Position numbers and translations under genes: made by a program
Shown here: piece after piece, positions 9,760-60,906 of the stretch
Layout: each line of letters begins with the position of its first letter
Position numbering within the stretch: the stretch's first letter is position 1
Source of the DNA: a virus
IMG/VR virus record: IMGVR_UViG_3300033273_000658
Span: 32,001 to 96,000 of that record
Reading direction: 5' to 3' (one strand)
DNA: 64,000 bases
The notes under the pieces: generated by a model
What the model was told of the DNA's origin: nothing
Database searches by the model: none
What the model saw: only the letters and a program-made list of their open reading frames with translations

Positions 9760-10092
9760 ATGTCAAGATACATAGATAGATCAAAAGCAGTTAATGATAA
9801 AGAACAATATGATAAATTGTTTGAAAAAAGAGGTGTGAAAAAAGTCATACAATATAGATCACCTTTTGCTAACTTCACAACAGAAGAAGAAAAAGCAAAA
9901 ATTGATTGTCACCAAATTGTTTGGAAATACGGAATGTCTTATGAATCCTTGGCATCCGAGTATTATGGTGATTTTAGACAGTGGTGGGTAATTGCAAGTT
10001 TCAATAATAAACCAACAGAGAGCCATGTTCAATTGGGCGATACAATAAAAATTCCAAAAGACATTTCTGAGGCTCTTGAGGTGGTGTCGTAA
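9760..10092 (+). CDS. Baseplate wedge/LysM-like protein (gp53-like)
   Basis: LASEYYGD..WWVIA.FN...GDTIKIP. Confidence 0.7.
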   Translation: MSRYIDRSKAVNDKEQYDKLFEKRGVKKVIQYRSPFANFTTEEEKAKIDCHQIVWKYGMSYESLASEYYGDFRQWWVIASFNNKPTESHVQLGDTIKIPKDISEALEVVS

Positions 10093-13000
10093 TGGCTAAA
10101 AAATCTGCAAGAAAAAACATTAGTTTTCTAGAAAATCTAACCATAGATGAGTACGATAGTTTAGGTCTATATGTCGTCAATAAAGGCATACCTAAAGAAG
10201 ATATAACGCCAGAAATTTATTTAGACCAACATACAAATGATGCAGGAAAATCGGAGATAGGGCTTTATCATCCGGATGACATTCGGTATATAAATGAAAA
10301 TTATCCAGATTTACCAAAAGAATTTCTCTGGACCATTAGACCTAATCTATCGGACAATAGCTACTTCCAACGAGGTCTATTTGTAGATTTGTTTGATGCT
10401 CTTCGTGAAGGAAGTGAACTGGATCTCAGTAGTGAGTTCATAAAACTATTTTTAAAGTACTATAGTAAAAAAGAAAATAGAGAATGGCTGTTTCAAAAAT
10501 ACATGCCGATGCAAACATTTTCAGGTGCTGATAGCAAACAAGTAGAAATAAATAATACTTTAGCTAAACTCATAGAAAAACATGAAGATGACATTTTTGA
10601 ACTAGTTGCTTTTGATAAATACAAATTTGAAGAGTTCGACAAACAAGTGGTTGTTTTATTGAATGAACATCTATCTAAATCCTTTCCTGTACATGGTCTA
10701 GAGTATGCTTACAAATCAAAAAGCGGTTATCGCTGGACAGGAGAAGGGATTATTGATCAAGTTGGCGCAACTGTTTTACCAGAAGAAAAGGTACACAAAG
10801 TTGAATCTTCTCTATTTTTTAATAAAGTTAATGATTATAGAAAACCTTTTGATTTTATTAAAGGCGAAGAGGGAACAAATGACGCAAAATTTATTGAAGG
10901 AAGTAGATTTTCAGATTTTAAAATTTCAAACCAAGTATCTGATACAACTGCTTGGTTTGACAAAGGGCCACAAGTACATGTAAAGTTTGCTTATAATAAT
11001 TTTTTAGTGAAATTTTTAAATGTTTTAGAATTACAGAAATCTGGGGAAATATCATACAATGATGAAGCAGTTGAAGTATTATTCCATAATAGTTTAGCTG
11101 ATTATTTAAATTCTCCAATAAAATTTTCAATCGGTAGTGATTTAGCTGGAACATCGCAAGAGTTTTCTTTAATGCTCGGTAATTATGTTGCAAAAAAGTT
11201 TTTAGATGATTTTAGATTTGCTGCTTGGAAAAAAGCAGTTAAAATTTTTAGTGAATTATCTGAAGATGAAATAAGTAAACTTACAGCTGATGATGAAAAA
11301 AAATTAGCTCAAGAATCTTTTGAGGCCGGGGAACGAGCTGCTCTAAAATCTGATGTTTTGGATAGAGACCCGAATACAGCTAGTGAAGATGAACTGTCAC
11401 AAGCAGAAATTGAAGAACGACAAAAGTTTTTTAAACAATGCGCATTAATGACAAGATTAGATGAATTCAGTAATGAATACGAACAAGCAGTTATTGAAAG
11501 AGCTGAAAAAATTAACCCAGGAAACTTTGCTTATAATGGAGATCGTTTTTATTTAGTAAAAGATGGTGACGGAGAGCAAAACGGTATTGTTTCTAAATTA
11601 CTTTTACCAAAGGCCTCTCAAATAGAAGAGTTTCTAGAAATTGAACCTTCTGCTCATGCCTATCTTGTACCAAAACTAAGGTTTTACAAAGTATCTCAAA
11701 AAGGAAGTACTGTTGTTGAAGAAGAATTTAAATTTCGCAATTTTACTTCGAACAATAGAGTCTCTAAACTTTTAAATGAACAATACGATAAAGGCGGTGA
11801 TTATGGTATAAGAGAGTTTTCTTTTTCTTTTGAAGGAACGACACCGGCAACAGCTAAAAACGACATACAAGCTAGTCTTTCTCTTTATTTTCAAACGTTT
11901 GATGATTTTGTCGACAAACAGCCGGAAAATAATTCTCCGTTTGTTGACATGCTTCTATTATCAGGTGGTACCAACAAAAAGGGGTCTGGTAAAGAAAGTA
12001 GGTTTCAATTTCAACCTGACTATTATAGGATGAGAGTTGATGTTGGATGGCTTATACCAGATAAAGACCACAAAGATTTAAAAAAGATAATAGGTAACAA
12101 TAGATTCTTACAACTAAAAACAGCGCTGCAAAAAACAAATAAAAGCTTTTACTTAAACATGATTGATCACACAATTGATTTTAGAGATGATGGGTCTGTG
12201 CAAATAGATGTTGAGTATAGAGCCTACATAGAATCATCTTTAAAAGGAACGGTTTTGGATGCATTAGCCAATAGAGAAACCAAGGCTTCTCGCAAAAAAA
12301 CACAAGATGATTATCTAACTATTTTAAATTCTAAAAGATGTACTGTGGGTGAATTAAATAAAATCAAAAGACAATTGTTACAAATCGAAGATCTCCTAAA
12401 AAAACAAGCGTATCAATCTATTATGAATCGCTTGATTAAAAATGGTTTTTTGTTTTTTAAAAAACTAAAAATAACCAGCGATGCAGAGAACTTTCAGAGA
12501 AATGGATTCTTTTCCGGAAAAGTTAAATTTGCATCAGATTCAGAAGAACCAAATGAGGAGAAAAAACTAAAAGAAGCAGCATCTGGAAAAACATTTGATC
12601 TAGATGACAATTTCTTCAATGAAAAGTTATCAAATGACGAAGATTATTTGTTTGTAAACTATTTTTACCTTGGGGATTTACTGTATGTTATCCTAGACTC
12701 TCTTTATGATGATAATGATAACTATCTTGAAGGCAACGAAAATTTTAAATTTATTTTGGGTTCTTTGCAATATGAAGATCTTTTTGATACAGCAACTACC
12801 TTCAAAACAATCAATATAGCATCTATACCAATCTCAGCTGAATTGTTTTTTGAATGGTTTACTGAAAATGTAATAAAACCAGAGAGAAATAGTTATCCGA
12901 TTATGTATTTTATAAGAGATTTATGTAAATATTTAATTGGGCAAATTTTATCTGAATCTTGCTTTAAAAGATCTTTAGATAAAAGATTGCAATTCAAAAC

Positions 13001-14015
13001 AACAAACTTTGTAGGAATTGGAGATCAATTAGAATCAATGGTGGATCTAGGAAAACCAATAATAGATTTAGAAACTGAATATAATAATGGAAATGTTCCA
13101 TTGTTTCAAGATTCTGATAAAAAAGTTCCGATTAGCAATTATACAAATTACATTCTTATTTATGTTGATGCACCAAAGCTTTTCGTGCCAGGTGATACAA
13201 TAAAAAGAGGCATAAAGTCTAATGATGGAGATGTAGGCATCTATCATTATCAAATAGGAAAAGACAGAGGACTTCTCAAAAAATTGAAATTCTCAAAAAC
13301 AGACATGCAATACGTACGAGAAGCAAGATTCTTTAGAAATGGTCGTGATGGTTTAATGCAACTTGCTAATGTATACAATGTAAATTTGGACATGATCGGA
13401 AATACATTGTATTATCCCGGCATGGAAATTTATATAAATCCGCTCGGATTCATGGGAGCAAAAAGCAAACAATTTAATCCTACAATAAAACAAAGTGTAG
13501 CTAATAGACTTGGATTTGGAGGCTATCACCTGGTAACAAATGTAAAATCTACAATAGCACCTGGTAAGTTTAATACTCAAGTAACAGCAATGTTCAATTA
13601 TTCGGGAGATGGAGATCCTTCTTCTGTCATAGTTGGCGGCAAGGACGACATAAAGCCAATCACAAAAGAAGATAAAATAGATGATGCTCATAGGCCCAAA
13701 GCAAATAAAAATTATTGTTCTTCTGCATACAATAAAATTATTAATGTTGCACTTGACATCTCAAACAATAAGCTGCAAAGCTATCCTGGTATAGACATTA
13801 AATCTCTGAATGACAAAGCAAGAGTTACAGGAAACGTAGAAGAAATGAGAGAGCAAAGAGCAATAGAAGCTTCAAGTGCCGAGCTACTAGGCAGCGGATT
13901 TGCAGACACCGGTGTTTCTGATGATGTTAGAGAAATAATCTCAGATGCTGGTGGGTTTAGAGAAGAATCCGCTCTTGAAACGCTTCTAAGACAGGCTGAA
14001 GAGGAAGAAGAATAA
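10092..14015 (+). CDS. Large baseplate hub-like structural protein
   Basis: 1307 aa; the C-terminal MIGNTLYYPGMEIYI...GGYHLVTNVKSTIAPGKFNTQV resembles hub (gp27/GPD-type) C-termini. Confidence 0.55.
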   Translation: MAKKSARKNISFLENLTIDEYDSLGLYVVNKGIPKEDITPEIYLDQHTNDAGKSEIGLYHPDDIRYINENYPDLPKEFLWTIRPNLSDNSYFQRGLFVDLFDALREGSELDLSSEFIKLFLKYYSKKENREWLFQKYMPMQTFSGADSKQVEINNTLAKLIEKHEDDIFELVAFDKYKFEEFDKQVVVLLNEHLSKSFPVHGLEYAYKSKSGYRWTGEGIIDQVGATVLPEEKVHKVESSLFFNKVNDYRKPFDFIKGEEGTNDAKFIEGSRFSDFKISNQVSDTTAWFDKGPQVHVKFAYNNFLVKFLNVLELQKSGEISYNDEAVEVLFHNSLADYLNSPIKFSIGSDLAGTSQEFSLMLGNYVAKKFLDDFRFAAWKKAVKIFSELSEDEISKLTADDEKKLAQESFEAGERAALKSDVLDRDPNTASEDELSQAEIEERQKFFKQCALMTRLDEFSNEYEQAVIERAEKINPGNFAYNGDRFYLVKDGDGEQNGIVSKLLLPKASQIEEFLEIEPSAHAYLVPKLRFYKVSQKGSTVVEEEFKFRNFTSNNRVSKLLNEQYDKGGDYGIREFSFSFEGTTPATAKNDIQASLSLYFQTFDDFVDKQPENNSPFVDMLLLSGGTNKKGSGKESRFQFQPDYYRMRVDVGWLIPDKDHKDLKKIIGNNRFLQLKTALQKTNKSFYLNMIDHTIDFRDDGSVQIDVEYRAYIESSLKGTVLDALANRETKASRKKTQDDYLTILNSKRCTVGELNKIKRQLLQIEDLLKKQAYQSIMNRLIKNGFLFFKKLKITSDAENFQRNGFFSGKVKFASDSEEPNEEKKLKEAASGKTFDLDDNFFNEKLSNDEDYLFVNYFYLGDLLYVILDSLYDDNDNYLEGNENFKFILGSLQYEDLFDTATTFKTINIASIPISAELFFEWFTENVIKPERNSYPIMYFIRDLCKYLIGQILSESCFKRSLDKRLQFKTTNFVGIGDQLESMVDLGKPIIDLETEYNNGNVPLFQDSDKKVPISNYTNYILIYVDAPKLFVPGDTIKRGIKSNDGDVGIYHYQIGKDRGLLKKLKFSKTDMQYVREARFFRNGRDGLMQLANVYNVNLDMIGNTLYYPGMEIYINPLGFMGAKSKQFNPTIKQSVANRLGFGGYHLVTNVKSTIAPGKFNTQVTAMFNYSGDGDPSSVIVGGKDDIKPITKEDKIDDAHRPKANKNYCSSAYNKIINVALDISNNKLQSYPGIDIKSLNDKARVTGNVEEMREQRAIEASSAELLGSGFADTGVSDDVREIISDAGGFREESALETLLRQAEEEEE

Positions 14016-20118: not shown

Positions 20119-21219
20119 ATGACTAAAGCAGGTAAAATTGACCTAAAAGCGATGCAAAAACTTGTTAACAAAAAGACCGGCTTAAACGTTGCTCACAACC
20201 TAAACGAAAATAATCCCACTATTGTGAAAGAGTGGATTCCGACAGGGTCTCGCTGGCTTGATTCTATTACATGTAGAGGAAGACTTGGTGGTATTCCAGT
20301 AGGAAAGATAACAGAGATTGCCGGACTATCTGGTGCCGGTAAATCATTCATGGCTGCTCAAATTGCTGCTAATGCTCAGAAGATGGGAAAGTTTCCTGTA
20401 TACTTTGATGCTGAATCTGCAATTGACCCAGAATTCTTGGAGAATGCCGGAATTGATACTCAAAACCTAATGTATGTTCAGGCAATCTCTGTTGAAAAAG
20501 TATTAGAAACAATTGAGACTCTTATCGATCAATACGAAGACACACAATTCTTGTTTATCTGGGACTCAATTGCTGCAACAAGTTCTGAAAAAGAACTTGA
20601 ATCAGATTTTAATCCTCAATCAACAATGTCCGTTAAGCCAAGAATCTTTGGCAAGGCATTTCCCAAACTAACTATTCCCTTGGCTAATGGACAACACACT
20701 TTGCTTCTGATAAACCAGTTGAAAACCAACATCAATACTCAGAACCCAATGGCTGCACTTATTGAGCCTTACATTGCTCCCGGTGGCAAAGCTATTGAAT
20801 ACTTCTGTTCTATGCGTATTTGGCTTACAAAGCGTAAATCAAAGGCAGCATACTTGCAAGATGATACTGGTCTTCGTATTGGTTCGGAAGTAAAGTGTAA
20901 ACTTCAGAAGTCTCGTTTCGGGACTGAAGGAAGAGAGTGCACATTCAAAATTCTATGGTCTGGTGGCGCTGCTATTCAAGATGAAGAGTCTTGGCTGTTA
21001 GCACTCAAATCCTCTGGAACCAAACGCTTGAAGTTATCAGGTGCATGGTATACTCTTGTTGATAAAGATGGAAAAGAAATGAAATTCCAAGGAAAACAAT
21101 GGAAGGCAAAGCTTCAAGATCCACATTTTAGACAAACAGTTCTAGATATTATGGATGAAGAGATTGTTAAGAAATTTGATTCCGAAGGTAAAAATTTTGG
21201 TGTGAGTGAAGACGACTAG
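20119..21219 (+). CDS. recA: RecA/UvsX recombinase
   Basis: IPTGS, GKITEIAGLSGAGKS, FDAESA, WDSIAA, INQLK and PGGKAIEY. Confidence 0.93.
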   Translation: MTKAGKIDLKAMQKLVNKKTGLNVAHNLNENNPTIVKEWIPTGSRWLDSITCRGRLGGIPVGKITEIAGLSGAGKSFMAAQIAANAQKMGKFPVYFDAESAIDPEFLENAGIDTQNLMYVQAISVEKVLETIETLIDQYEDTQFLFIWDSIAATSSEKELESDFNPQSTMSVKPRIFGKAFPKLTIPLANGQHTLLLINQLKTNINTQNPMAALIEPYIAPGGKAIEYFCSMRIWLTKRKSKAAYLQDDTGLRIGSEVKCKLQKSRFGTEGRECTFKILWSGGAAIQDEESWLLALKSSGTKRLKLSGAWYTLVDKDGKEMKFQGKQWKAKLQDPHFRQTVLDIMDEEIVKKFDSEGKNFGVSEDD

Positions 21220-33303: not shown

Positions 33304-33498
33304 ATGGTAGGAAGATTAGTAAAATGGATTCACGATGAGATGCCAACAAATCTTTGTGTAATAATTGATGATTTAGGGTACAAAGAAGATCATATAGTTT
33401 TATCCGAAGAAGAAGAAAATGAAATGCTTTTTCTTTGTTATGACTTTGTAACAAACGAACAATTTTATGCTTTGGAGAATGAACTCCAGTTTATTTAG
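33304..33498 (+). CDS. Small SH3-like hypothetical protein (MVGRLVKW)
   Basis: GGAGG RBS; its stop codon overlaps the first G of the tmRNA. Confidence 0.6.
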   Translation: MVGRLVKWIHDEMPTNLCVIIDDLGYKEDHIVLSEEEENEMLFLCYDFVTNEQFYALENELQFI

Positions 33499-33883
33499 GG
33501 GGCGCAATGGTTTCGACAGGGTAGACATGAAGGACAAGTGCAAGTAGGTAAGAACGACCTTAACAGTTTAAAAAAATTATAATTGCCAATAATAACAATT
33601 ATTTCGAAGTAGCTCAAGCAGCTTAATCGGGTGGTTTCTTTATACCATCAGTCCAAATAAAGATAGTCAGATGGGTGAGACGATAAAGTTATAAGGGAGT
33701 CTAGCGGACTTTGCCGTACCTAAAATGGTTACCCTGTTGGTAGCAGGTGGAACTCTAAGGCTACACAAGAGTTGGTTGGAAAAAAGGTAGCTACTTTGTT
33801 TGTTTAGAGAAACAAAATAAACTTGTGAACGACTTTAATTTATGATGCGCTGGACAGCAGTTCAATTCTGCTCGCCTCCACCA
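33498..33883 (+). ncRNA. ssrA: tmRNA, one-piece; tag (A)ANNNNYFEVAQAA* at 33585-33626
   Basis: 5' GGGGGCG..GGTTTCGAC; 3' T-arm AGCAG-TTCAATT-CTGCT then CGCCTCC-ACCA; G3:U70 alanine identity; resume codon GCC after ATAATT; tag ends in AA. Confidence 0.96.
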
Positions 33884-50405: not shown

Positions 50406-50580
50406 GCTTGTGTATTTTGAAGACCTTGATGGTCAAATTTACCTGTCTGTTATTCTTGCTGATGGGGTTTCTGGATACGGTGGAGATACGAGAATAATTT
50501 ATGTTATCTACTCAATCGCAAATCGATCCACTTGGTTGGCTTATGAGTCTGAGCTGACTCTAGCCAAAAACTTTACATAA
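50386..50580 (+). CDS. SH3/KOW-like family protein
   Basis: FGTGELVYF...WLAYESEL. Confidence 0.55.
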   Translation: MQFGTGELVYFEDLDGQIYLSVILADGVSGYGGDTRIIYVIYSIANRSTWLAYESELTLAKNFT

Positions 50581-50982
50581 CTTTTTTTATCTAAGTTACA
50601 TAAAATTTTAACAAACTTCATAAAACATGTCAAACTTTTTATGTAACTTTCTTAAAATTGTCTCTTGCAAGAATCATGCCAAAAATGTTTTACATAACTC
50701 AGACACTGAAATCGTGGCTGCAACTACCTTTAAGGTTGTTTTTGGATCATTGCAAGAACCATGCCAAACTTTTTTTACATAACTTTGAACCATTTTAAGC
50801 AAGTTACATAAAATTTTAACAAACTTCATAAAATGACTTGCAAGAATCGTGCCAATTTTTATTTACATAACTCAGGCATCGAAAACAGCTCTACGAGCTT
50901 CCAAAGGCCAGATCGCTTAACTTTACTATGAAGTTACATAAAATTTTAACAAACTTCATAAACTTTAACAAACTTCATAAAA
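50561..50982. repeat. Composite non-coding repeat region
   Basis: Repeat A (AAGTTACATAAAATTTTAACAAACTTCATAAA) at 50593, 50801 and 50931; repeat B (TTGCAAGAAYCRTGCCAA-N8-TACATAACT) at 50665, 50750 and 50838; eight TTACATAA boxes, one inverted at 50639. Confidence 0.92.
50665..50855 (-). promoter_or_regulatory. Three tandem sigma-54 (-24/-12) promoter consensus sites
   Basis: Minus strand reads TTGGCATGATTCTTGCAA, TTGGCATGGTTCTTGCAA and TTGGCACGATTCTTGCAA, each with GG-N10-GC spacing. Confidence 0.7.
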
Positions 50983-51057
50983 AAAGTGAAGAAAAAGTTT
51001 GACAAGGTTATTTTGCTGGGTTAATGAATATTCTGCAACACAAAACATGGAGACAAC

Positions 51058-51216
51058 ATGAAAGTTGGTGACTTGGTAAAGAATAAATACAACAACAAAG
51101 TTGGGATAATAATCTCACATAGTGGACGGCCACACCGTATACTTGGTGTAATGTACAGTGTGTGGATAGATGGACTTGATGTGCTATTACACGAATCAGA
51201 CTTGGAGGTATTATGA
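51058..51216 (+). CDS. Microprotein cassette 1 (52 aa, MKVGDLV...LEVL)
   Basis: Translated by hand; GGAG RBS. Confidence 0.8.
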   Translation: MKVGDLVKNKYNNKVGIIISHSGRPHRILGVMYSVWIDGLDVLLHESDLEVL

Positions 51217-51368
51217 TAGGTAGACTTGTGCGTTGCAAATATACAAATGAAATAGGAATAGTGTTGCGTAGGGAAATAACACGCAGAGGAAACTTTCGCT
51301 ACCATGTGTTTATTGGTGGCCATACAGAAAGTTTTCTTCCACATTTCTTGGAGGTGATAGATGAATAA
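51213..51368 (+). CDS. Microprotein cassette 2 (51 aa, MIGRLV...LEVIDE)
   Basis: ATGA overlap and GGAGG RBS. Confidence 0.8.
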   Translation: MIGRLVRCKYTNEIGIVLRREITRRGNFRYHVFIGGHTESFLPHFLEVIDE

Positions 51369-51531
51369 AGGTGACTTGGTACGGATAAGACATAACGAAC
51401 ATCAAGGGCTATTCATCCTCATGGAAAAATGTTCGGCTGGTAGCCAGTTCGTGAGACTATATTCTTTGAAATACAACCGCGTATGTTTTGATATGATACG
51501 CTCATTAGAGGTGATAAATGCAGAAAGGTGA
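51361..51531 (+). CDS. Microprotein cassette 3 (56 aa, MNKGDLV...LEVINAER)
   Basis: Junction repeat. Confidence 0.8.
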   Translation: MNKGDLVRIRHNEHQGLFILMEKCSAGSQFVRLYSLKYNRVCFDMIRSLEVINAER

Positions 51532-51667
51532 TTTAGTTAGATGTATATACACTGATGAACTATTGGTCATAACTTCGGAAGAAGTTGACGGCTATTTTGA
51601 TGTGTATGCAGTTGGAAATGGAAACATGTGGCTTATGCCCAAAGAACATTTAGAGGTGATAAAATGA
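51518..51667 (+). CDS. Microprotein cassette 4 (49 aa, MQKGDLV...LEVIK)
   Basis: Junction repeat. Confidence 0.8.
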   Translation: MQKGDLVRCIYTDELLVITSEEVDGYFDVYAVGNGNMWLMPKEHLEVIK

Positions 51668-51849
51668 AAGTAGGTGATTTAAGAGTATTTAAGCCTTGTA
51701 GTTTCTATGCAAACAACATGTTTGTTGTCACACAAGTAGACGATATGGACTGCTCAATAACAATAAGAATAATAAAGACAGGAGAAGTGGAATGTTGGGA
51801 TCGAATAATACTTCTTCACGACAGTAAATCCGTATCGGTCAAAAAATAA
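51664..51849 (+). CDS. Microprotein cassette 5 (61 aa, MKVGDLR)
   Basis: Junction repeat. Confidence 0.8.
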   Translation: MKVGDLRVFKPCSFYANNMFVVTQVDDMDCSITIRIIKTGEVECWDRIILLHDSKSVSVKK

Positions 51850-51916
51850 ACTTTTTTCTTGACAAAATAATTGCAACACATTAAGCTATAATTGCCAATC
51901 AAAACATGGAGACAAA
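51850..51916 (+). promoter_or_regulatory. Repeated early-promoter cassette. The -35 boxes lie at 51859, 53166, 55598, 57071, 58320, 59771 and 60465, with variants at 50999, 54417, 60841 and 62768.
   Basis: TTTTTTC-TTGACA-AAATAATT..AA.CCTA-TAAG(G/C)T-ATAAA...C/A-rich leader-(C/T)GGAG with a 17 nt spacer. Confidence 0.85.
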
Positions 51917-52660
51917 ATGAACATAGAAAAAACAAAAGAGATTCTGCTAGGAAGAATAAACAAACTGACAGAAGAAGAAAGAGAGTGGATGTACGAAAAC
52001 AATAGAGCATGGTATAACAAATACCTTTTTGATAGTCCGTACCAAAAAGAAGAATACTCCAACTTACAATGGGAAGCTATGTGGCTATGGTCATCCTTTG
52101 GCCAAGACTACCTTCGCAATAAGTCTTTGGCAAAGAAATTTCTATCTTCGGAGAAGAAGATGAATCAAGTCATGGATATGATGCAAGACCGCAAGAAGTG
52201 GTATAATACTCGTGTCGATGAAATAAAGCAGCTACATGCGACTGGTAAGCTCACACAAGAGATTATGGCTTTCTTCATAAGCATGTTTCGCAAAGAAAAC
52301 TTCAATGTCTTTGAGAGCTATGTTAAAGACCCAATCTTTGACACTGGTGCAATTGTGCAGTTTCGCTCCAACATTGGTGTAGACGCAGTTCTTCAAGAAC
52401 ATAAGTATAGTGGTGGCACACAGTATTACGGAGCGAATCATAGTACAATGCGAGAACTTAAGCAAAAGACCATGATGGTGCTGGGTGAAAGTCCACCGTT
52501 GGGCGGCAAGATTTATGCTAGTGCCTATTCTCATAAAGAGAAACAAGGTGGTTCACGCTTGTATCGTGTTCTTCCTATCGGAGACACAAAAGTGTATATT
52601 GTTGTGGAGAAGTTCCTTAAGAAGTGTAGAACAAAGGCAGTGAAAGATGCAAAGAAGTGA
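51917..52660 (+). CDS. Hypothetical protein with C-terminal SH3-like domain
   Basis: 247 aa; FDTGAIVQF...YRVLPIG...EKFLKK. Confidence 0.7.
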   Translation: MNIEKTKEILLGRINKLTEEEREWMYENNRAWYNKYLFDSPYQKEEYSNLQWEAMWLWSSFGQDYLRNKSLAKKFLSSEKKMNQVMDMMQDRKKWYNTRVDEIKQLHATGKLTQEIMAFFISMFRKENFNVFESYVKDPIFDTGAIVQFRSNIGVDAVLQEHKYSGGTQYYGANHSTMRELKQKTMMVLGESPPLGGKIYASAYSHKEKQGGSRLYRVLPIGDTKVYIVVEKFLKKCRTKAVKDAKK

Positions 52661-52841
52661 TTTCAAGAAAGGCGATCTGTTCAGATACAATAAAGGTATG
52701 TCTATCCATGATGACGTTCATGGGCTTATAGGCATTGTGCTTGCTCCAATCAATCAGTTTGGACAATACAAAGTGCAAGTAGCGCACAAAACATTGTGGG
52801 TTCCTTTTTGTTCCTTGGAGGTGTTAGATGAAGAAAGGTGA
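52647..52841 (+). CDS. Microprotein cassette 6 (64 aa, FKKGDLF...LEVL)
   Basis: Family motifs. Confidence 0.75.
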   Translation: MQRSDFKKGDLFRYNKGMSIHDDVHGLIGIVLAPINQFGQYKVQVAHKTLWVPFCSLEVLDEER

Positions 52842-52992
52842 TGTGGTAATACCAGTCAGTAAAGATTTAGATAAGACACCTATGATCTACATGGGAATAG
52901 GTTTGTGGACTGGGTGGATACGCGTGTATTGTCCAGCAGATGGACAGATAATACAGGTTAGAAAAACATTCGTACAAAAGGTGGAAGTATGA
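52828..52992 (+). CDS. Microprotein cassette 7 (54 aa, MKKGDVV)
   Basis: Junction repeat. Confidence 0.75.
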   Translation: MKKGDVVIPVSKDLDKTPMIYMGIGLWTGWIRVYCPADGQIIQVRKTFVQKVEV

Positions 52993-53156
52993 AAGTAGGT
53001 GATCTGGTACAGATGAAAGACACACGCTACCACAAAGAGATAGGTGTGGTCATAAAAACTTTTTTCCATGGCGATTGGCGAATAGAGGTTCATTGGGCTG
53101 ATGGTCGTGTGTTGTGGGAATCAAAGCTGGACTTAATACCTGTTGAAAAAACTTAG
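52989..53156 (+). CDS. Microprotein cassette 8 (55 aa, MKVGDLV...EVHWADG)
   Basis: ATGA overlap; family motifs. Confidence 0.8.
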   Translation: MKVGDLVQMKDTRYHKEIGVVIKTFFHGDWRIEVHWADGRVLWESKLDLIPVEKT

Positions 53157-53224
53157 AATTTTTTCTTGACAAGATTTGCTCAATCAGATAAGGTATAAAT
53201 ATAACATCAAAACATGGAGGCAAC

Positions 53225-53578
53225 ATGGCTTACATCAAACCAAAAATGAATGTGTTCTTCGCCAATGGTGGCAAGGCAATAACGGCAGTCATAGACAAGA
53301 TTGCATTTCGCAAGTACATGACAAAACCATACAAAGATCCAAAGACAGGTGAAACCAAACGTAGACAGAAGTCTATGCCGTTCGCAGTGTGTCGTGTGAT
53401 TCTATCTCTTGATCCATCGGTGAATGTGAATGAGACATTCCTTATCGCTGGTTATCAGCTTGAAAATGTAGTTATCAAGAATGAGAAGATGCTCACATTC
53501 AAAAGCGACTACGTTGCAGAGTATGCAAAAGACTATGGTAACGAATGGGTTAGGAGAATAATCAATGAAGATAGGTGA
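53225..53578 (+). CDS. Hypothetical basic protein
   Basis: 117 aa; follows a promoter cassette. Confidence 0.7.
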   Translation: MAYIKPKMNVFFANGGKAITAVIDKIAFRKYMTKPYKDPKTGETKRRQKSMPFAVCRVILSLDPSVNVNETFLIAGYQLENVVIKNEKMLTFKSDYVAEYAKDYGNEWVRRIINEDR

Positions 53579-53741
53579 TTTAGTAAAATGTATAGAAACA
53601 GACTACGGAATAGGTATAATCACAATGAAAAGACCTTTTGGTGGTTTTATAGTGTGTTTTCCAAACTCAAAGTTAAAACATAGCGACAAGTGTATTGGTT
53701 TATCAAGAGGAAACTTGGAGGTGATCAATGAAAAAAGGTAG
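53565..53741 (+). CDS. Microprotein cassette 9 (58 aa, MKIGDLV...LEVINEKR)
   Basis: Junction repeat. Confidence 0.8.
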   Translation: MKIGDLVKCIETDYGIGIITMKRPFGGFIVCFPNSKLKHSDKCIGLSRGNLEVINEKR

Positions 53742-53895
53742 TTTAGTGAGAATAAAACATTCAGCAGATATGAAACTCATAGGCACATTCGGTATTGTTT
53801 TGGGAGATTTGCAACATGGTCATATCATGATAAAGCGTTTTGTGGATGGTCGTAGAGATACCTATCATCAATCTAGATTGGAGCTGATAGCATGA
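53728..53895 (+). CDS. Microprotein cassette 10 (55 aa, MKKGSLV...LELIA)
   Basis: Junction repeat. Confidence 0.8.
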   Translation: MKKGSLVRIKHSADMKLIGTFGIVLGDLQHGHIMIKRFVDGRRDTYHQSRLELIA

Positions 53896-54077
53896 AGATA
53901 GGTGATTTAGTTAGGGTAAACAGTGTTTTCTCTTGGGAACATCAAAAATACTTAGGCAAGATAGGTGTATTGAGGCGCAAAGCAGTAGGTACGGATAGTG
54001 TTTGGCTTGTGTACATAGATGGAAAAACATTATTATTAAGAGATGATAGATTAGAGGTGATAAATGAAAGTAGGTGA
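53892..54077 (+). CDS. Microprotein cassette 11 (61 aa)
   Basis: MKIGDLV...LEVINESR. Confidence 0.8.
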   Translation: MKIGDLVRVNSVFSWEHQKYLGKIGVLRRKAVGTDSVWLVYIDGKTLLLRDDRLEVINESR

Positions 54078-54288
54078 TTTAGTAAAGGTGTCCAACAAAG
54101 GGTTCACAGCGATAGGGTTCATCAAAAATATTATGAAAAGCCAGATGGGTGAATTTTTCATGGTACATTACCTTACCACCAATGGAGTCCCAAACTTTCG
54201 TGGATACACCAATGGTGGGCTGTGGTCAAAGAAGTATCTGCAATTATTAAAGGAGGTGGAAGATGAAAAAGATATTAGCAAGACATAG
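54064..54288 (+). CDS. Microprotein cassette 12 (74 aa)
   Basis: MKVGDLVKVSNKG; similar to the 57457 cassette. Confidence 0.8.
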   Translation: MKVGDLVKVSNKGFTAIGFIKNIMKSQMGEFFMVHYLTTNGVPNFRGYTNGGLWSKKYLQLLKEVEDEKDISKT

Positions 54289-54451
54289 AGACAAGGAAGT
54301 TTTCAATAAGATCGGCTTTGGAATAGTCACTGAGGATCTTGACGAGACAAAGTGCAAAGTGAAATGGCTGAAAAGCCAGTATGAAACTCTACAACTGAAA
54401 AATTACATCTTTTTGCTTGACGAACAGGCAGAGAACGGCTATATTGAATAG
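54263..54451 (+). CDS. Microprotein cassette 13 (62 aa), paralogue of 48553
   Basis: LARHR...GFGIVTED...KVKW. Confidence 0.7.
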   Translation: MKKILARHRDKEVFNKIGFGIVTEDLDETKCKVKWLKSQYETLQLKNYIFLLDEQAENGYIE

Positions 54452-54468
54452 ACACAACAGGAGACAAC

Positions 54469-54624
54469 ATGTTAGATACAATAGAGAAATGTTATTATGT
54501 GAGCAGTGATAGACTGCATGAGAGTAAACCAATGACTATGTTTCAAGCTTTACGGTTTGCAGATAGTTTAGAGAGACAAGGACACAAGAACGTGTTCTTT
54601 TACAAGGGGCAGTTAGCGATATGA
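54469..54624 (+). CDS. 51 aa hypothetical protein (MLDTIEKCYYV)
   Basis: Promoter at 54417 and AGGAG RBS. Confidence 0.65.
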   Translation: MLDTIEKCYYVSSDRLHESKPMTMFQALRFADSLERQGHKNVFFYKGQLAI

Positions 54625-54800
54625 AGATAGGTGACTTGGTAAAACTGGAATACAAAGGCGTAGATCTTGATGAGAAAGATAGATTGAAGATTGGTATTGT
54701 GGTCAACAATACCATCACAACTTTACAACTGGCCAAGGTTCTTTGGAGTAATGGCGATCAAACATGGTGTTTATGCGAGCAGTTAGAGGTGATAGCATGA
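54621..54800 (+). CDS. Microprotein cassette 14 (59 aa, MKIGDLV...LEVIA)
   Basis: Junction repeat. Confidence 0.8.
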   Translation: MKIGDLVKLEYKGVDLDEKDRLKIGIVVNNTITTLQLAKVLWSNGDQTWCLCEQLEVIA

Positions 54801-54976
54801 AAATAAAAGTAGGAAGTTTAGTACAGATACAAAACTTTGCAAAGTACAGTGGAATGATTGGGATTGTCATATACGTTTGTAGACGAGCAGGTTTTGTCGA
54901 TAGTTACGCAGTAAAGATCCCGAACACCACATACGAGTTAGGTGTGGCGAGAGAACAACTCAAGGCGTTAGCATGA
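54797..54976 (+). CDS. Microprotein cassette 15 (59 aa, MKIKVGSLV)
   Basis: Junction repeat. Confidence 0.8.
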   Translation: MKIKVGSLVQIQNFAKYSGMIGIVIYVCRRAGFVDSYAVKIPNTTYELGVAREQLKALA

Positions 54977-55128
54977 AAGTAGGTGATTTGGTTAAACACA
55001 TGGGGCATGGTCGCATTGGTGTTATTCTTAGAGATCTAGTTCCCAATGCTAGGGTTAAAAGGTATCTTGTTCATTGGGGTGACTATCAGTCATCACAAGT
55101 AGTATGGGCTTTGGAGGTGATAGCATGA
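54973..55128 (+). CDS. Microprotein cassette 16 (51 aa, MKVGDLV...LEVIA)
   Basis: Junction repeat. Confidence 0.8.
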   Translation: MKVGDLVKHMGHGRIGVILRDLVPNARVKRYLVHWGDYQSSQVVWALEVIA

Positions 55129-55304
55129 AGAAAGGTGATTTAGTAACGGAGAAGTGGCGCATGTGGCGAAACATAGGTATCGTCAAGAGAGTAGGCAAAG
55201 ACGGATATACAAAGGTTAAATGGATCTTGAAAGCAGATCCAGTAGCTGACGATCAGTTTACCAGTGTGTTCGTTGTAATAGGAGAGATCAATGAAAGTAG
55301 GTGA
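55125..55304 (+). CDS. Microprotein cassette 17 (59 aa, MKKGDLV)
   Basis: Junction repeat. Confidence 0.8.
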   Translation: MKKGDLVTEKWRMWRNIGIVKRVGKDGYTKVKWILKADPVADDQFTSVFVVIGEINESR

Positions 55305-55446
55305 TTTGGCAGAATATTATTTACGTCCAAAAAGCTGGGGCATTATTGTAGGGATAGATACCTTTGAGTATGAGATGTTTTGGATGGATGGAAGCCGTGG
55401 ATGGATCTCAAAACGATCAATGGTCAAGAAAAGAGGTGATCAATGA
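55291..55446 (+). CDS. Microprotein cassette 18 (51 aa, MKVGDLAE)
   Basis: Junction repeat; close duplicate of the next cassette. Confidence 0.8.
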   Translation: MKVGDLAEYYLRPKSWGIIVGIDTFEYEMFWMDGSRGWISKRSMVKKRGDQ

Positions 55447-55589
55447 AAGTAGGTGATTTAGCAGAACACCACATCAACTCTTGGTGTTGGGGTATTATTG
55501 TGGCGATGGATACCTTTGAGTATGAGGTGTTTTGGATGGACGGAGAACGCTCTTGGGTAAGAAAAGAAATCATGGTCAAAAAATTATAG
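55443..55589 (+). CDS. Microprotein cassette 19 (48 aa, MKVGDLAE)
   Basis: Shares WGIIV..DTFEYE.FWMDG with cassette 18. Confidence 0.8.
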   Translation: MKVGDLAEHHINSWCWGIIVAMDTFEYEVFWMDGERSWVRKEIMVKKL

Positions 55590-55655
55590 CTTTTTTCTTG
55601 ACAAAATAATTCCAATCCTATAAGGTATAAACATAACATCAAAACAGGAGACGAC

Positions 55656-56576
55656 ATGAAACTAGGTTACGCATGTATCAACAAAGGACTATCTGAACAG
55701 TCCATCAAAAACCGTATCACAACCAACCGTACATTTCGCAAGGCTACCTTTGAAGAGAAAGGTTTACCTCATGCGTCTGCTATCTTCTTACAGAACAGTA
55801 AAGACTTGCTTAAGATCCTCCAATGGAACGAGCAACACAACATCAAGTTCTTTCGCTTGTCCTCGCAGATTGTATCGTGGGCTACGGAGTATCAGCTCAC
55901 TGACTTGCCAGACTACGATCAGATTGAAGAAGTTCTTTTTGAGTGTGGTCTATTCATCGAAGAGCATGGTATGCGTGTCACATCACATCCCGATCACTTT
56001 GTCAAACTTGCGTCACCCAATGAGGATGTTGTTCGCAATTCTATTCGTGACTTGGAGATTCATGGTGAGATCTTTGATCTATTGTGCCTACCTCGTACCC
56101 ACTATGCCAAACTGAACATTCATGTTGGCGCGTCCTATGGTGACAAACCCAAGGCTATTGACAACTTTTGTCGTAACGTAGATAGACTATCCGATGCAGT
56201 ACGCTCTCGTTTGACCGTAGAGAATGATGATCGTGCCTCCTTGTACTCTACCCTAGACCTCATGGAAGTTTACAAGCGTGTCGGTACTCCCATCGTACAT
56301 GACCTACACCACCATGGGTTCTGCACTGGTGGTCTATCCAACCCCGATGCTCTTACACTTGCAGTGTCTACATGGGGCGATACTACCCCCGTGGTACACT
56401 ACTCCCAATCCCGTGCCATAGAACACAATGACACGTCCATCAAGGCACATGCACACTCAGACTCATACTGGACACCAGTGGATACATACGGACATGATGT
56501 GGATGTGATGCTTGAATGCAAGCACAAAGAGCTAGGTTTATTCAAGATGCGAGAACTATTAGGAAAAACTATTTAA
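55656..56576 (+). CDS. uvsE: UV damage endonuclease (UvsE/UVDE)
   Basis: LGYACIN, FFRLSS, SHPDHF, NIHVG, ENDD, DLHHH, HAHSD and MLECKHKE. Confidence 0.93.
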   Translation: MKLGYACINKGLSEQSIKNRITTNRTFRKATFEEKGLPHASAIFLQNSKDLLKILQWNEQHNIKFFRLSSQIVSWATEYQLTDLPDYDQIEEVLFECGLFIEEHGMRVTSHPDHFVKLASPNEDVVRNSIRDLEIHGEIFDLLCLPRTHYAKLNIHVGASYGDKPKAIDNFCRNVDRLSDAVRSRLTVENDDRASLYSTLDLMEVYKRVGTPIVHDLHHHGFCTGGLSNPDALTLAVSTWGDTTPVVHYSQSRAIEHNDTSIKAHAHSDSYWTPVDTYGHDVDVMLECKHKELGLFKMRELLGKTI

Positions 56577-56590
56577 CAAAGGAGACAACC

Positions 56591-56839
56591 ATGAAAACAG
56601 AAAGAGAACAAGCAATACAAAACCTTATGAAAATAATGCCTGACCATACTGACAGTGCGTTTATAGTTAAACAAGAGGGTGATGATAGTGGCTCGTACCT
56701 ATGTGTGTATGTAGAGCGCACAGAGACAGGTGCAGAGGTATGCAAGACCATCCCAACACCGTTTGAGGGATGGAGAGTGGTGCATGTGTGGTGTCCAGAT
56801 GGGTTCATCAAGCACATACTGGAGAGAACGAGAGAATGA
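56591..56839 (+). CDS. Hypothetical protein (82 aa)
   Basis: AAGGAG RBS. Confidence 0.65.
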   Translation: MKTEREQAIQNLMKIMPDHTDSAFIVKQEGDDSGSYLCVYVERTETGAEVCKTIPTPFEGWRVVHVWCPDGFIKHILERTRE

Positions 56840-57045
56840 AAATAGGCGATCTTGTTGTGTTATCGGCCAAAGGTGCGAAGTTAAAGCACAACCACAATTA
56901 TTATCGTGGCTTTGGAATTATTTTAGAGGTTTACCCAGCGAAAGGATACTATGACTTCGGTATACAGTGGTTTTGCGAGGGTAGATCCACACACAACAAG
57001 AGAGTTTGGTTTAAGAGATACGAGATAAAGAAATTAAAACCTTGA
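56836..57045 (+). CDS. Microprotein cassette 20 (69 aa, MKIGDLV)
   Basis: ATGA overlap; family motifs. Confidence 0.8.
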   Translation: MKIGDLVVLSAKGAKLKHNHNYYRGFGIILEVYPAKGYYDFGIQWFCEGRSTHNKRVWFKRYEIKKLKP

Positions 57046-57129
57046 TTATGAAAAAACTTCAATTTTTTTCTTGACAAAATAATTGTAACCCTATAAGCTA
57101 TAAACACCACACCGAACAACGGAGAAAAA

Positions 57130-57327
57130 ATGATTGGAAAACTAGTAAAACGAAAAGAAAAAAAACACCACAAGTTTTGGGGAGTAGGTATAGTTTTAGA
57201 TTACAGATCCACAGGAAGATTTTACCCCAGTACAGAACTGAAAGTGCATTGGGTTTCCTGTGAAATCGGTTCACAGATTTCTAGCATTGACATTGGGCTT
57301 GTGGAGTTTTTAGATGAAAGCAGGTAG
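57130..57327 (+). CDS. Microprotein cassette 21 (65 aa, MIGKLV)
   Basis: GIVLD...KVHW; follows a promoter cassette. Confidence 0.75.
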   Translation: MIGKLVKRKEKKHHKFWGVGIVLDYRSTGRFYPSTELKVHWVSCEIGSQISSIDIGLVEFLDESR

Positions 57328-57460
57328 TGTAGTAGAAAATACTTTTGGAGACATTGGTATCGTCATTCGACAGATAGGTGTCGCAGATAGGTGGCTCATT
57401 CAATGGGCTAGTGGAGAAGTTTACGGTATCAATGGATACCAACTAGAGGTGATAGCATGA
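57314..57460 (+). CDS. Microprotein cassette 22 (48 aa, MKAGSVV...LEVIA)
   Basis: Junction repeat. Confidence 0.8.
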   Translation: MKAGSVVENTFGDIGIVIRQIGVADRWLIQWASGEVYGINGYQLEVIA

Positions 57461-57651
57461 AGATAGGTGATTTAGTAAAAGTGACACACAAAGGTAATCG
57501 TACGATTGGATACATCAAAAAGTTTGGACGTTATGGGAAGAGTTATGTTATGGTCGTGTACTTGACTGGCTCTCATGTAGGCAAAGAGCGGTTCTTCTCA
57601 GAAAAAGAAGTCCTACCAATCAATCAACTCATTGGAGAGGAAAGAGCATGA
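57457..57651 (+). CDS. Microprotein cassette 23 (64 aa)
   Basis: MKIGDLVKVTHKG. Confidence 0.8.
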   Translation: MKIGDLVKVTHKGNRTIGYIKKFGRYGKSYVMVVYLTGSHVGKERFFSEKEVLPINQLIGEERA

Positions 57652-57827
57652 AGATAGGTGATTTAGTTATAGTAAAAGATGTTTTGGGCTACAACACGTA
57701 CATGCAGAACCTTGCCGGTCACATTGGTGTAATTGTCAAGGAAAGGTACAATGAGCATTGGGTGAAAGTCCACATACTAGGAAAAACAAAAAGGATCAGC
57801 ATATATGATTTGAAGGTGATAAAGTGA
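57648..57827 (+). CDS. Microprotein cassette 24 (59 aa, MKIGDLV...LKVIK)
   Basis: Junction repeat. Confidence 0.8.
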   Translation: MKIGDLVIVKDVLGYNTYMQNLAGHIGVIVKERYNEHWVKVHILGKTKRISIYDLKVIK

Positions 57828-58000
57828 AGATAGGAACACTATGCGAAGTGGTTGCAATAGCAAGTCATTTTCCATCACAGTTTGGTGATTTAGTGGTCAT
57901 AACAGGATACACACATGGTGTATACATCACTGGAACAAACTTGAAAACAGGCAAAACACATCATTACAACCCAACAGAACTCAAAGAGGTGAAACAATGA
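57824..58000 (+). CDS. Microprotein cassette 25 (58 aa, GTG start, MKIGTLC...LKEVKQ)
   Basis: GTGA overlap after AAGGTGAT. Confidence 0.7.
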   Translation: MKIGTLCEVVAIASHFPSQFGDLVVITGYTHGVYITGTNLKTGKTHHYNPTELKEVKQ

Positions 58001-58296: not shown

Positions 58297-58379
58297 AAAA
58301 ATTATTTTCAACTTTTTTCTTGACAAAACAATTCCAACCCTATAAGGTATAAAGACCAACCCAAACAAACGGAGACAAC

Positions 58380-59309
58380 ATGAACATTCATGAAAACAAG
58401 AACAGCTCAAACAGAAGTAAAGCAACATGTGGCTACTGCCGAGAAGAGGGGCACAACCAATACCAATGTCCACACGTCAAAGGTGATTGGGAGAACTTCC
58501 TATCAAGACTGGAAATTCCCAAAGACAAAGATGGTAACATCATCAGACGTGGCTATAATTACGCTGTATGGAGTTATAGTGGCAACTTCGATCCTCTCAC
58601 TATGGACATAGCCAATAATGCTCTTGCCTCATGGTTTCGTAACTGCAAGAAAGCATACCTCGTCCAGAAAGAACGTGGGTTCAATCTTGAACACAAAACC
58701 AAGCGCAAAGCAGTAAATAGAACATGTGGCTTTTGTGGTGGCAAAGATCATACAAGGCGCAACTGTACCAAGATGGAACAGTTTCTCAAAGACTGCTACA
58801 AAGCCAATGAGAACTGGCGAATGGCTGCCTACAAAGATCTTGTGTTGGATGGTGGCTTATCTGTTGGGGCTTGTATCAAGGTCTCTTATGAAACAGGCAA
58901 CTGGAGTAATAGAGAGACTAAAATGAGCACCGGTATCATCACCAAGATAAATTGGAACACTGTAAATGTGTTCTCCGGTATGAACAAACGTCACAACGAT
59001 GCTCATTCTCCGATAGAGGTTTCTGTACTGGTAGATGGTGAAACAAGACGACTTGATAATCTTGCTGACAAGTTCAACACTGTCGGAGAGAATGGTAGAA
59101 TACATTCCTTTTGGAATGGTGCCCCAGCATGTTCACTGCATACAGTTATCACCAACTCCCCTACTCCCCTACCCCAAGAGTGGATTACTTCCTACAAGGA
59201 ATCCTTTGGAACTCTTGTCAAGAAGAGAACTTATGAGCAACTACAAAACGGCTTGAAGTCCGATTGGCGACCTGCTAACCTTGTAGCTCACATTGACGCA
59301 TGGAAATAA
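58380..59309 (+). CDS. Protein with two CCHC zinc knuckles
   Basis: CGYCREEGHNQYQC and CGFCGGKDHTRRNC. Confidence 0.75.
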   Translation: MNIHENKNSSNRSKATCGYCREEGHNQYQCPHVKGDWENFLSRLEIPKDKDGNIIRRGYNYAVWSYSGNFDPLTMDIANNALASWFRNCKKAYLVQKERGFNLEHKTKRKAVNRTCGFCGGKDHTRRNCTKMEQFLKDCYKANENWRMAAYKDLVLDGGLSVGACIKVSYETGNWSNRETKMSTGIITKINWNTVNVFSGMNKRHNDAHSPIEVSVLVDGETRRLDNLADKFNTVGENGRIHSFWNGAPACSLHTVITNSPTPLPQEWITSYKESFGTLVKKRTYEQLQNGLKSDWRPANLVAHIDAWK

Positions 59310-59310
59310 C

Positions 59311-59493
59311 ATGCGTTATTCTCCCCTACATACAGGTGATCTCATACACATGTATGGATTGGAGAGCATGATAGGTGTGGTTGTGCGTGAAAGGCGCGAG
59401 GGTGTGTATGATATACACATCTTCCAAGACAATCGCACATTCACATTCCCTAGGGGTATGCTAGAAAAACTTAAAACAACGGAGATAACATGA
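59311..59493 (+). CDS. SH3/KOW-like microprotein (HTGDLI...IGVVV...MLEKL)
   Basis: Family motifs. Confidence 0.6.
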   Translation: MRYSPLHTGDLIHMYGLESMIGVVVRERREGVYDIHIFQDNRTFTFPRGMLEKLKTTEIT

Positions 59494-59744: not shown

Positions 59745-59830
59745 ACGGACAAAAAATTTCAACTTTTTTCTTGACAAAATAATTCCAATCCTATAAGCTA
59801 TAAACACTAACCCAAACAAACGGAGTGACC

Positions 59831-60492: not shown

Positions 60493-60906
60493 TATAAACA
60501 TCTTCACAACGAAGAACTTTCAACAACAACGGAGACAACATGTCATTTACCGACCAACAACTAAAACAACTAGGCACGTATGAGATACAAAATCTATCAG
60601 ATGAAGAACTCAAAGAACTTACTGTTTCACAATTGGAAATCATCAAAGATACTTTACAAGATGAACGAGACGAACTTGCAAACGAATACAATACTGGCGA
60701 CCCTCTTTGCTATCCCCCTGACTGGTATGATTACCACGTATATCCTCTTGATAGTGCAATCTCAAAGATCGAAGATCTCATGAAAGACGATGAAAATTCC
60801 GATGAAGATTCATGGTATTAAAAAAACTTTAACTTTTTTCTTGACAAAGCTTTTCAACCTAATTATTATATAAACATCTTCACAGCGAAGAACTTTCAAC
60901 AACAAC
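60493..60906 (+). repeat. 38 nt duplicated leader with TCTTC-ACARC-GAAGA hairpin (60493-60530 and 60869-60906)
   Basis: One mismatch, located in the loop. Confidence 0.85.
60540..60821 (+). CDS. Highly acidic small early protein
   Basis: About 25 D/E against 6 K/R in 93 aa; has its own promoter. Confidence 0.7.
   Translation: MSFTDQQLKQLGTYEIQNLSDEELKELTVSQLEIIKDTLQDERDELANEYNTGDPLCYPPDWYDYHVYPLDSAISKIEDLMKDDENSDEDSWY

Follow-up and report, generated by a model that had tools for sequence, protein, structure and literature searches.

The stretch of DNA examined here, which we call the window, is 64,000 nucleotides (nt) long and comprises bases 32001-96000 of the 141,005-bp single-contig IMG/VR virus record IMGVR_UViG_3300033273_000658 (completeness estimate 78%). 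Between positions 51058 and 58000 it holds an array of 24 members of one family of very small genes (48-74 amino acids, aa), all on the plus strand and linked by a recurrent coding junction. A sequence-only reading, made without database searches, had described about 25 small co-oriented open reading frames (ORFs) of one family at this locus, and the count proved sound: a strict N-terminal motif identified 19 ORFs, and a profile built from those 19, taken together with the common architecture, added 5 more. A mostly metagenomic profile used at a threshold of at least 18 bits recovered 21 of the 24 (22 in the searched stretch, including an outlier at 59335). The picture of one continuous array did not survive, as the family genes instead form five runs and one singleton, interrupted by five or six non-family genes and four promoter-like elements. 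The features are as follows, in window coordinates; L numbers denote our loci.

51058..51849, plus strand: Run 1, five family genes whose stop and start codons overlap (51058-51216, 51213-51368, 51361-51531, 51518-51667, 51664-51849); from the ORF list, profile matches and junction alignment.
51850..51916, plus strand: promoter-like element, with A-run/T-run, TTGACA, 17 nt, TAAGCT, GGAGA and ATG, hairpin weak; from sequence and motif count.
51917..52660, plus strand: non-family 247-aa gene, an anchor, without Pfam/PHROG match; orthologues in L001, L002 and L003.
52647..53156, plus strand: Run 2, three family genes (52647-52841, 52828-52992, 52989-53156); from the ORF list and profile.
53157..53224, plus strand: promoter-like intergenic element; from sequence and motif count.
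53225..53578, plus strand: non-family 117-aa gene, with C-terminus …INEDR and a 14-nt overlap junction with the next cassette.
53565..54288, plus strand: Run 3, four family genes (53565-53741, 53728-53895, 53892-54077, 54064-54288); from the profile.
54263..54624, plus strand: two small genes, a weak family member (54263-54451) and a non-family gene (54469-54624); from the ORF list and profile.
54621..55589, plus strand: Run 4, six family genes (54621-54800, 54797-54976, 54973-55128, 55125-55304, 55291-55446, 55443-55589); from the profile.
55590..55655, plus strand: promoter-like intergenic element; from sequence and motif count.
55656..56576, plus strand: UvdE, a UV-damage endonuclease-like non-family gene (phrog_8420, E 2e-47), anchor for the locus collection.
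56516..56839, plus strand: non-family small gene, anchor A107 (107 aa; longest ORF shown); from the ORF list and gene order.
56836..57045, plus strand: single family gene, type t0; from the profile.
57046..57129, plus strand: promoter-like intergenic element; from sequence and motif count.
57130..58000, plus strand: Run 5, five family genes (57130-57327, 57314-57460, 57457-57651, 57648-57827, 57824-58000); from the profile.
58297-58379: promoter-like element just downstream of the array; from sequence.
59293..59493, plus strand: outlying weak family member without the standard junction (E 1.8e-5).

Within the runs, start-to-start distances are 143-191 bp and neighbouring family genes overlap by either 4 nt (ATGA) or 14 nt. 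Paralogue identity in the window is mostly below 40%; the best pair, the last two genes of Run 4, reaches 66% aa identity, and these two are the sole fairly recent duplicates. About seven further members without the junction had been reported elsewhere in the window. Such outliers do exist, but they number only about four to six and all are weak: the window-derived profile gave only four weak outliers in the genome outside the region, and the outlying members lie at 33032, 48553, 49855 and 59293, plus the one at 54263.

Relatives of the locus were collected by a UvdE-anchored metagenome scan, which kept 80 loci of at least 468 relatives. To these we added the window itself, the viral-contig relatives L001 and L003, the merged closest relative and the distant metagenome arrays L005/L006, making a set of 85 loci. 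The set holds 397 cassettes, as we call the family genes, all co-oriented with UvdE and falling into 179 types (clusters at a minimum of 55% identity).

The junction alignment bears out the proposal that one short motif serves as the last strand of a gene, as a Shine-Dalgarno (SD) sequence, as the start of the next gene and as an overlapping stop. The upstream gene ends in L-E-V-I, encoded by TTR GAG GTG ATn, and the next gene begins 1-4 nt past this LEVI motif (5-8 nt past the GGAGG core) with ATG AAR RTA GGT GAT TTR GT. In its TTG form the motif reads GGAGGTGAT, which we take to be a perfect 9-nt complement of the 16S rRNA 3' end, and in its TTA form the SD motif is GAGGTGAT, 8 nt. The stretch common to otherwise unalignable genes amounts to ~20-33 nt. 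It occurs in two registers, the first with the 4-nt ATGA overlap and the second with a 14-nt overlap, where the MKVGD codons of the next gene, read out of frame, give the upstream protein its (I/V)NESR ending and the TGA within GGTGA of that next gene serves as the upstream stop. The first 14 nt of a cassette (ATGA…GGTGA) hold stops in both other frames, so that any upstream gene is terminated whatever its incoming frame; stops in both other frames were found in the first 21 nt of 148 of the 179 cassette types compared with 39 of 138 control ORFs. An out-of-frame tail of the form (I/V/L)(N/S)ExR also ends 88 of the 136 best short relatives of the family, which shows that the tandem 14-nt overlap is its usual state.

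The uniformity of synonymous positions noted in the sequence-only reading was likewise upheld, and it exceeds what amino-acid and codon-usage constraints would give. The heptamer AGGTGAT occurs 35 times in the window compared with 8.8 expected, 23 of these copies lying inside the array on the plus strand. Glycine 4 is encoded by GGT in 18 of 19 window genes, whereas the genome-wide share of GGT is 0.42. Among the 85 loci, GGT is used in all 76 cassette types in which it supplies the upstream stop, in 58 of 68 types whose upstream gene stops at ATGA and in 28 of 40 first-in-run types, against a background (genome and cassette interiors) of 0.36-0.42. This graded GGT excess where it is not needed would fit cassettes having moved between contexts. 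Leucine 6 is TTR in ~88% of cases compared with 41-48% in the background, and the same junction nucleotides recur in L005, a distant 45% GC array of ten tandem genes on a 2-kb contig. Gene conversion was considered as a cause of the synonymous uniformity and rejected, as the synonymous identity between junctions of different types was 0.619 within a locus and 0.594 between loci; junctions are thus not homogenised within genomes. In our reading, the junction is kept constant by selection that acts throughout the family on the overlapping stop and on initiation, rather than by gene conversion.

Between the window and its closest relative, an 89.7-kb IMG/VR contig with ~87% nt identity, the differences are of whole cassettes. 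Of the window cassettes, seven are absent from the relative or lie elsewhere in it (the first two genes of Run 3 are missing); the relative also has one additional cassette, and two cassettes are replaced. For the window cassette at 57130, the counterpart in this relative lies 8 kb downstream, and that in a third genome precedes the 247-aa gene. Four indels between the two genomes could be resolved, of which three fall in the junction, with 20, about 9 and 10 shared nt, and the fourth at the SD/start boundary behind a promoter-like element, with ~7 shared nt. Conservation of cassette content and order among close relatives would have spoken against shuffling; both were found to differ. Gene-order strings for the 85 loci show that anchor genes are mostly conserved in order while cassette types recombine combinatorially. 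Type t1, for instance, has 9 successors and 7 predecessors in 19 occurrences and type t3 has 7 successors in 10, and loci with UvdE at least 88% identical display 15 upstream configurations in 18 loci and 17 downstream configurations in 19. Type t0 is present in 23 loci and directly follows A107 in 15 of 21 contiguous cases. Two copies of the same type were met in only 7 loci. Loci with UvdE at least 74% identical contain 280 cassettes in 211 kb, compared with 29 in 282 kb for a more distant clade.

The position of the exchanges is sharply defined. In 99 locus pairs with the same upstream type and a different successor, identity is level at ~0.87 through position +19 of the successor, beyond which it drops to ~0.37; for the 52 pairs that have a different predecessor and the same downstream type it is ~0.27 until -12 and above 0.9 from the ATG. 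A breakpoint test independent of our typing, based on the ends of blastn high-scoring segment pairs among 30 loci, put 72% of the 319 breakpoints between -15 and +24 relative to a cassette start, compared with 26% under a uniform null, a strong enrichment at the very place where the sequence-only reading had looked for one. Most of the remaining breakpoints are ends of cassettes whose neighbour is no listed family member. Junction-centred gain, loss and reordering of cassettes is thus well supported by comparison among relatives.

It could be argued that these are ordinary tandem paralogues which recombine anywhere, that the junction has no role in the process, and that selection leaves only whole-gene events that preserve coupling. 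Selection would explain the family-wide conservation of the junction, some of the resolved events share only 7-10 nt, and the anchors outside the family (the 117-aa, 247-aa and 107-aa genes) differ in position among relatives too. However, the joints are scarless and always restore the same register, the breakpoints form a sharp peak from -20 to +29, identity steps exactly at the edges of the shared motif, and the largest resolved deletion sits within a 20-nt identical stretch, so that we regard this explanation as improbable. As to the moving anchors, we noted the 117-aa gene in L025, L035, L043, L045, L051 and L052 upstream of UvdE, directly after it or far downstream, and it apparently moves as the cassettes do. 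An artefact of metagenome assembly, in which chimeric contigs would have been fused at the repeated junction, is very improbable indeed. The contigs of this region are short, mostly a few kb, which would fit breaks in a repetitive, microdiverse region; but the same variant adjacencies recur across independent projects (L008/L009; L014/L015/L032, from three accession series; L019/L020; L051/L052), and the window and the 89.7-kb IMG/VR contig differ by the same kind of event. Moreover, the 20-33 nt junction is shorter than the final k-mers of common assemblers.

Shuffling as such was confirmed in the form of gain, loss and reordering across relatives, but it is slow. In three contigs of different accession series the UvdE nucleotide sequences are identical, and so are the arrays; pairs at 95-96% UvdE nt identity show one or two cassette differences and pairs near 92% several, which amounts to a turnover of roughly one to two events for every ten cassettes at 4-5% nt divergence. 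Divergence of shared cassettes follows that of UvdE (rho 0.54), with the cassettes evolving faster. These data bear directly on the idea of a dedicated programmed system, in which the junction would have evolved as a site of recombination, with the phage RecA reshuffling the array at high frequency in an integron-like or phase-variable manner. The location of breakpoints at junctions, the combinatorial adjacency of cassettes and the retention of a "frame-proof" start even where it is currently not needed agree with such a system, and the genome does have the RecA-like gene that had been postulated (20119..21219, plus strand; PF00154, 126.8 bits, match at window 20149-20967). Yet that gene lies 30 kb away among replication genes, and it may at most be a possible catalyst of junction recombination, its link to the array being conjectural. 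The suggested likeness to a CRISPR array or an integron holds for the layout, but the 141-kb record (78% complete) contains neither a tyrosine integrase (PF00589) nor a reverse transcriptase (PF00078), and an attC-like hairpin is absent from the junction, whose predicted single-stranded DNA folding energies of 0 to -0.6 kcal/mol are no better than those of shuffled sequences. It also speaks against a programmed system that the arrays agree in the three independent assemblies whose UvdE genes are identical, that pairs at 95-96% identity show only one or two changes, that cassettes co-diverge with the backbone and that junctions are not homogenised, and we think such a system quite unlikely. We read the shuffling as a slow modular evolution of a hyperplastic region at the level of populations, and not as a programmed switch.

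The family products were predicted with high confidence to be stand-alone 50-65-aa five-strand KOW/SH3-like barrels, in line with the fold assigned to them in the sequence-only reading. An AlphaFold2 model of the gene at 54973-55125, built from a 130-sequence alignment, has five strands and a predicted local distance difference test score (pLDDT) of 97.1, and Foldseek searches against the PDB matched it to HspQ (TMq 0.86), to the KOW domains of MutS2 and eS4 and the C-terminal Tudor domain of UvrD (all within 0.74-0.86), to the NusG KOW domain (0.58), and further to PetP and NdhS. All Foldseek matches had E of at least 0.01, which is normal for so small a fold; together with the model they show the five-strand SH3-like beta-barrel by which the KOW/SH3-like class is defined. 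The family profile matched PDB sequences of Spt5 KOW (E 2.9e-4 to 2e-3) and NusG (0.019-0.033), the matches being confined to the first 26-50 positions. The Pfam KOW model PF00467 was not matched at E <= 0.1 by any of the 24 members, and Pfam and PHROG scans of the members gave only scattered chance-level matches. The family comprises at least 945 clusters at 50% identity (E <= 1e-3), which come from marine metagenomes wherever their source is given, and whose names, when looked up, returned only "hypothetical protein"; its best viral matches are uncharacterised 50-70-aa proteins. Two long cluster "members", P0267 and P0268, were discarded as unrelated proteins and database noise, and in a protein atlas the close clusters were unnamed, the nearest named ones, DfrB and DsrB, reflecting likeness of the SH3-like fold and not kinship. 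The interiors of orthologous cassettes have ratios of nonsynonymous to synonymous substitution (dN/dS) of 0.07-0.53 by type and 0.28 overall, so that the ORFs are real genes under purifying selection. The term "hypervariable", which had been applied to them, is misleading, as the divergence is that of old paralogues.

Some metagenomic relatives depart from the single-domain form. P0007, P0016, P0087 and P0109 are in-frame two-domain fusions of 106-127 aa joined at what seems a former junction, and loss of the stop at a junction would give such two-domain proteins. P0036 (905 aa) and P0039 (727 aa) contain 4-6 tandem (F/Y)x(I/V)GDLV… domains alternating with a second KOW-like repeat, which indicates that the family domain exists as covalent repeats too.

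The promoter-like elements share an A-run and a T-run, TTGACA, 17 nt and TAAG(G/C)T, followed by GGAG and ATG, and the core motif occurs 10 times in the window compared with 1.6 expected. As judged from sequence, five elements fit the layout of the promoter/stem-loop (PeSL) repeats known from T4-type phages, namely repeated copies, within a hyperplastic region, of a sigma-70-like promoter that is preceded by an AT-rich tract and followed by an SD sequence and a start. Hairpins of the window elements consist of A and T only (-0.6 to -4.6 kcal/mol, mostly no better than shuffles); the elements of relatives have a 5-bp GGACA/TGTCC stem adjoining the -35 box. Like the coding junctions, promoter-like elements border indels between close relatives.

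In these relatives, run-final genes often end in …VKKCP, residues encoded by the 5-bp stem-loop GGACA-AAAAA-TGTCC, and the TGA stop of such a gene falls inside the -35 box TTGAC of the following promoter-like element. Protein C-terminus, hairpin and promoter therefore overlap, at these coordinates:

REL1 (L002/L004): 9895-9965, 11215-11300 and 13855-13940.
L001: 6310-6400, 7040-7105 and 10345-10430.

Upstream of the first cassette, window positions 50560-51058 form a 500-bp gene-free stretch with two motifs in several copies, a ~30-nt AT-rich unit and CTTGCAAGAATCATGCCAAA-like units, the latter resembling TGGCA-N-TTGC (sigma-54-type) sites on the minus strand. Downstream of the array the promoter-like TTTTCTTGACAAAAT motif recurs at 59766-59780 and 60836-60850, which suggests that the early/hyperplastic region reaches at least 60.9 kb.

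Taken together, we consider it likely (probability about 0.72) that the array is a lineage-specific expansion of ~25 small KOW/SH3-like paralogues which evolve by junction-guided modular shuffling. The genes would be grouped into five short operons, each with a sigma-70-type promoter-like element in front of it, and translation would be coupled between the genes of a run. Family-wide selection, rather than gene conversion, would keep the junction constant, and the resulting ~20-33 nt common to genes that are otherwise unalignable would allow recombination in the junction to delete, insert or relocate whole genes without scars. Strains carry different combinations of cassettes from a large pool (at least 179 types in the 85 loci). 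As for function, the products are probably small binders, made early, whose targets would be host proteins or nucleic acids and in which the core is conserved and the loops vary; a strain-specific repertoire of them would mirror the diversity of host strains.

Several points weigh against this explanation. The guidance of recombination by homology is deduced from the position of breakpoints, and selection for intact genes would also cluster the surviving ones; some resolved events share only 7-10 nt; and non-family genes move too, so that the junction is not the only seat of plasticity. The relatives are without exception metagenomic contigs, among which some adjacencies may be chimeras of strains. 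The anti-Shine-Dalgarno match presupposes that the host has the generally conserved 16S 3' end. Expression, early timing and the role of the promoters are readings of the sequence, and the binding role of the proteins is the weakest step.

A further, rather doubtful idea goes beyond junction-guided shuffling: the junction may be an evolved portable "plug", by means of which marine phages keep a combinatorial library of hundreds of KOW-like binders, directed for example against host defence or against transcription or translation factors. Each cassette would carry its own start, the ribosome-binding site of the next gene, stops for both foreign frames and the homology for recombining. If true, such an array would be the protein-coding counterpart of an integron cassette array and would work without a site-specific recombinase.

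The phage itself appears to be an uncultured marine myovirus that is not T4-like, to judge from its DnaE-type polymerase and a tail sheath only ~28% identical to that of any isolate. Other genes in the window encode a DnaB-type helicase, ribonucleotide reductase and GroEL, the sheath being of the contractile type. A megablast of the window against the phage collection gave no near-DNA match among cultured phages, the best protein matches to isolates are only ~28-32% identical, and tblastn with a typical family member against the same collection gave no match at E <= 0.01. The phage group was recovered at least 468 times in the metagenome collection; wherever a source is named it is marine, and Tara samples are included. 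The best genome-collection match of the phage GroEL (53% identity) is in L088, an 84.5-kb contig (PBLX01000048.1) of a "Legionellales" metagenome-assembled genome. This contig may be a mis-binned relative of the phage rather than carry a bacterial gene, and since it may itself be viral the match gives no host identification. We also noted a full-length transfer-messenger RNA gene at window 33498-33883 (plus strand; Rfam RF00023, 101.9 bits) with the tag peptide ANNNNYFEVAQAA.

The family, which has at least 945 clusters, no Pfam, PHROG or PDB assignment and no match in cultured phages, can now be described by its fold, its lineage and its genomic habit of coupled tandem arrays in early regions. 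Strain-specific early microproteins of this kind are natural candidates for host-takeover or counter-defence functions in uncultured marine phages. The arrays probably also explain the assembly breaks seen at this locus in the phage group.

A literature search for earlier descriptions of such arrays returned nothing relevant. The nearest precedent is the PeSL-mediated shuffling of T4-type phages, in which promoter/stem-loop repeats between small early ORFs are points of exchange and can form mini-circles (Arbiol et al. 2010, PMC2839356; Comeau et al. 2014, PMC4122927). In both cases short conserved repeats between small non-essential early genes allow insertion, deletion and replacement among close relatives, and the array region too has composite elements with an AT-rich tract or small hairpin, TTGACA, a -10 box, an SD sequence and a start. 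However, the main exchange point here is a promoterless coding junction, made up of C-terminal strand, SD sequence, start and N-terminal strand of one paralogous family, and hence not a PeSL, the shuffled genes are homologous to each other, and the phage is not T4-like. A related dispensable region of small genes is the cyanophage "ORFanage", which is spontaneously lost (PMC4503421).

Integrons resemble the array in having small co-oriented promoterless cassettes behind a promoter, with content and order varying among relatives, but the array lacks IntI (PF00589 being absent from the 78%-complete record) and attC hairpins, and its cassettes all come from a single protein family and have overlapping coding sequences. 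In contrast to CRISPR, the "spacers" here are ORFs under purifying selection that fold into a domain, and the repeat itself is coding (no search aimed at cas genes was made). Diversity-generating retroelements differ in that PF00078 is absent from the record. The "genomic accordions" of poxviruses, such as K3L arrays, change copy number by recombination and are linked to antagonism of host defence (PMC6115191). They share with the present system tandem arrays of one family in a large double-stranded DNA virus and recombination-driven copy change, but accordion copies are recent and near-identical, whereas the copies here are ancient and divergent (mostly <40%, best 66%) and without homogenisation. 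With the KOW/SH3-like barrels of NusG, Spt5, uL24, eS4, MutS2, UvrD, Mfd and HspQ the family has in common the same five-strand barrel (TMq up to 0.86) and an N-terminal G-D-x-V … G-I-V pattern resembling the KOW motif, but its members stand alone at 50-65 aa and, save for chance ones, have no Pfam match at E <= 0.1. The dense clusters of tiny genes in SPO1 (genes 37-60) and among the T4 early ORFs likewise have strong early promoters and ribosome-binding sites and vary among relatives; they hold unrelated genes, whereas here there are 25 paralogues with a common coding junction. The novelty lies in a dominant exchange point that is itself coding, a junction common to one large paralogous family and doubling as ribosome-binding site, start and both-frame terminator; exchange at such a junction extends the PeSL idea in phage hyperplastic regions.

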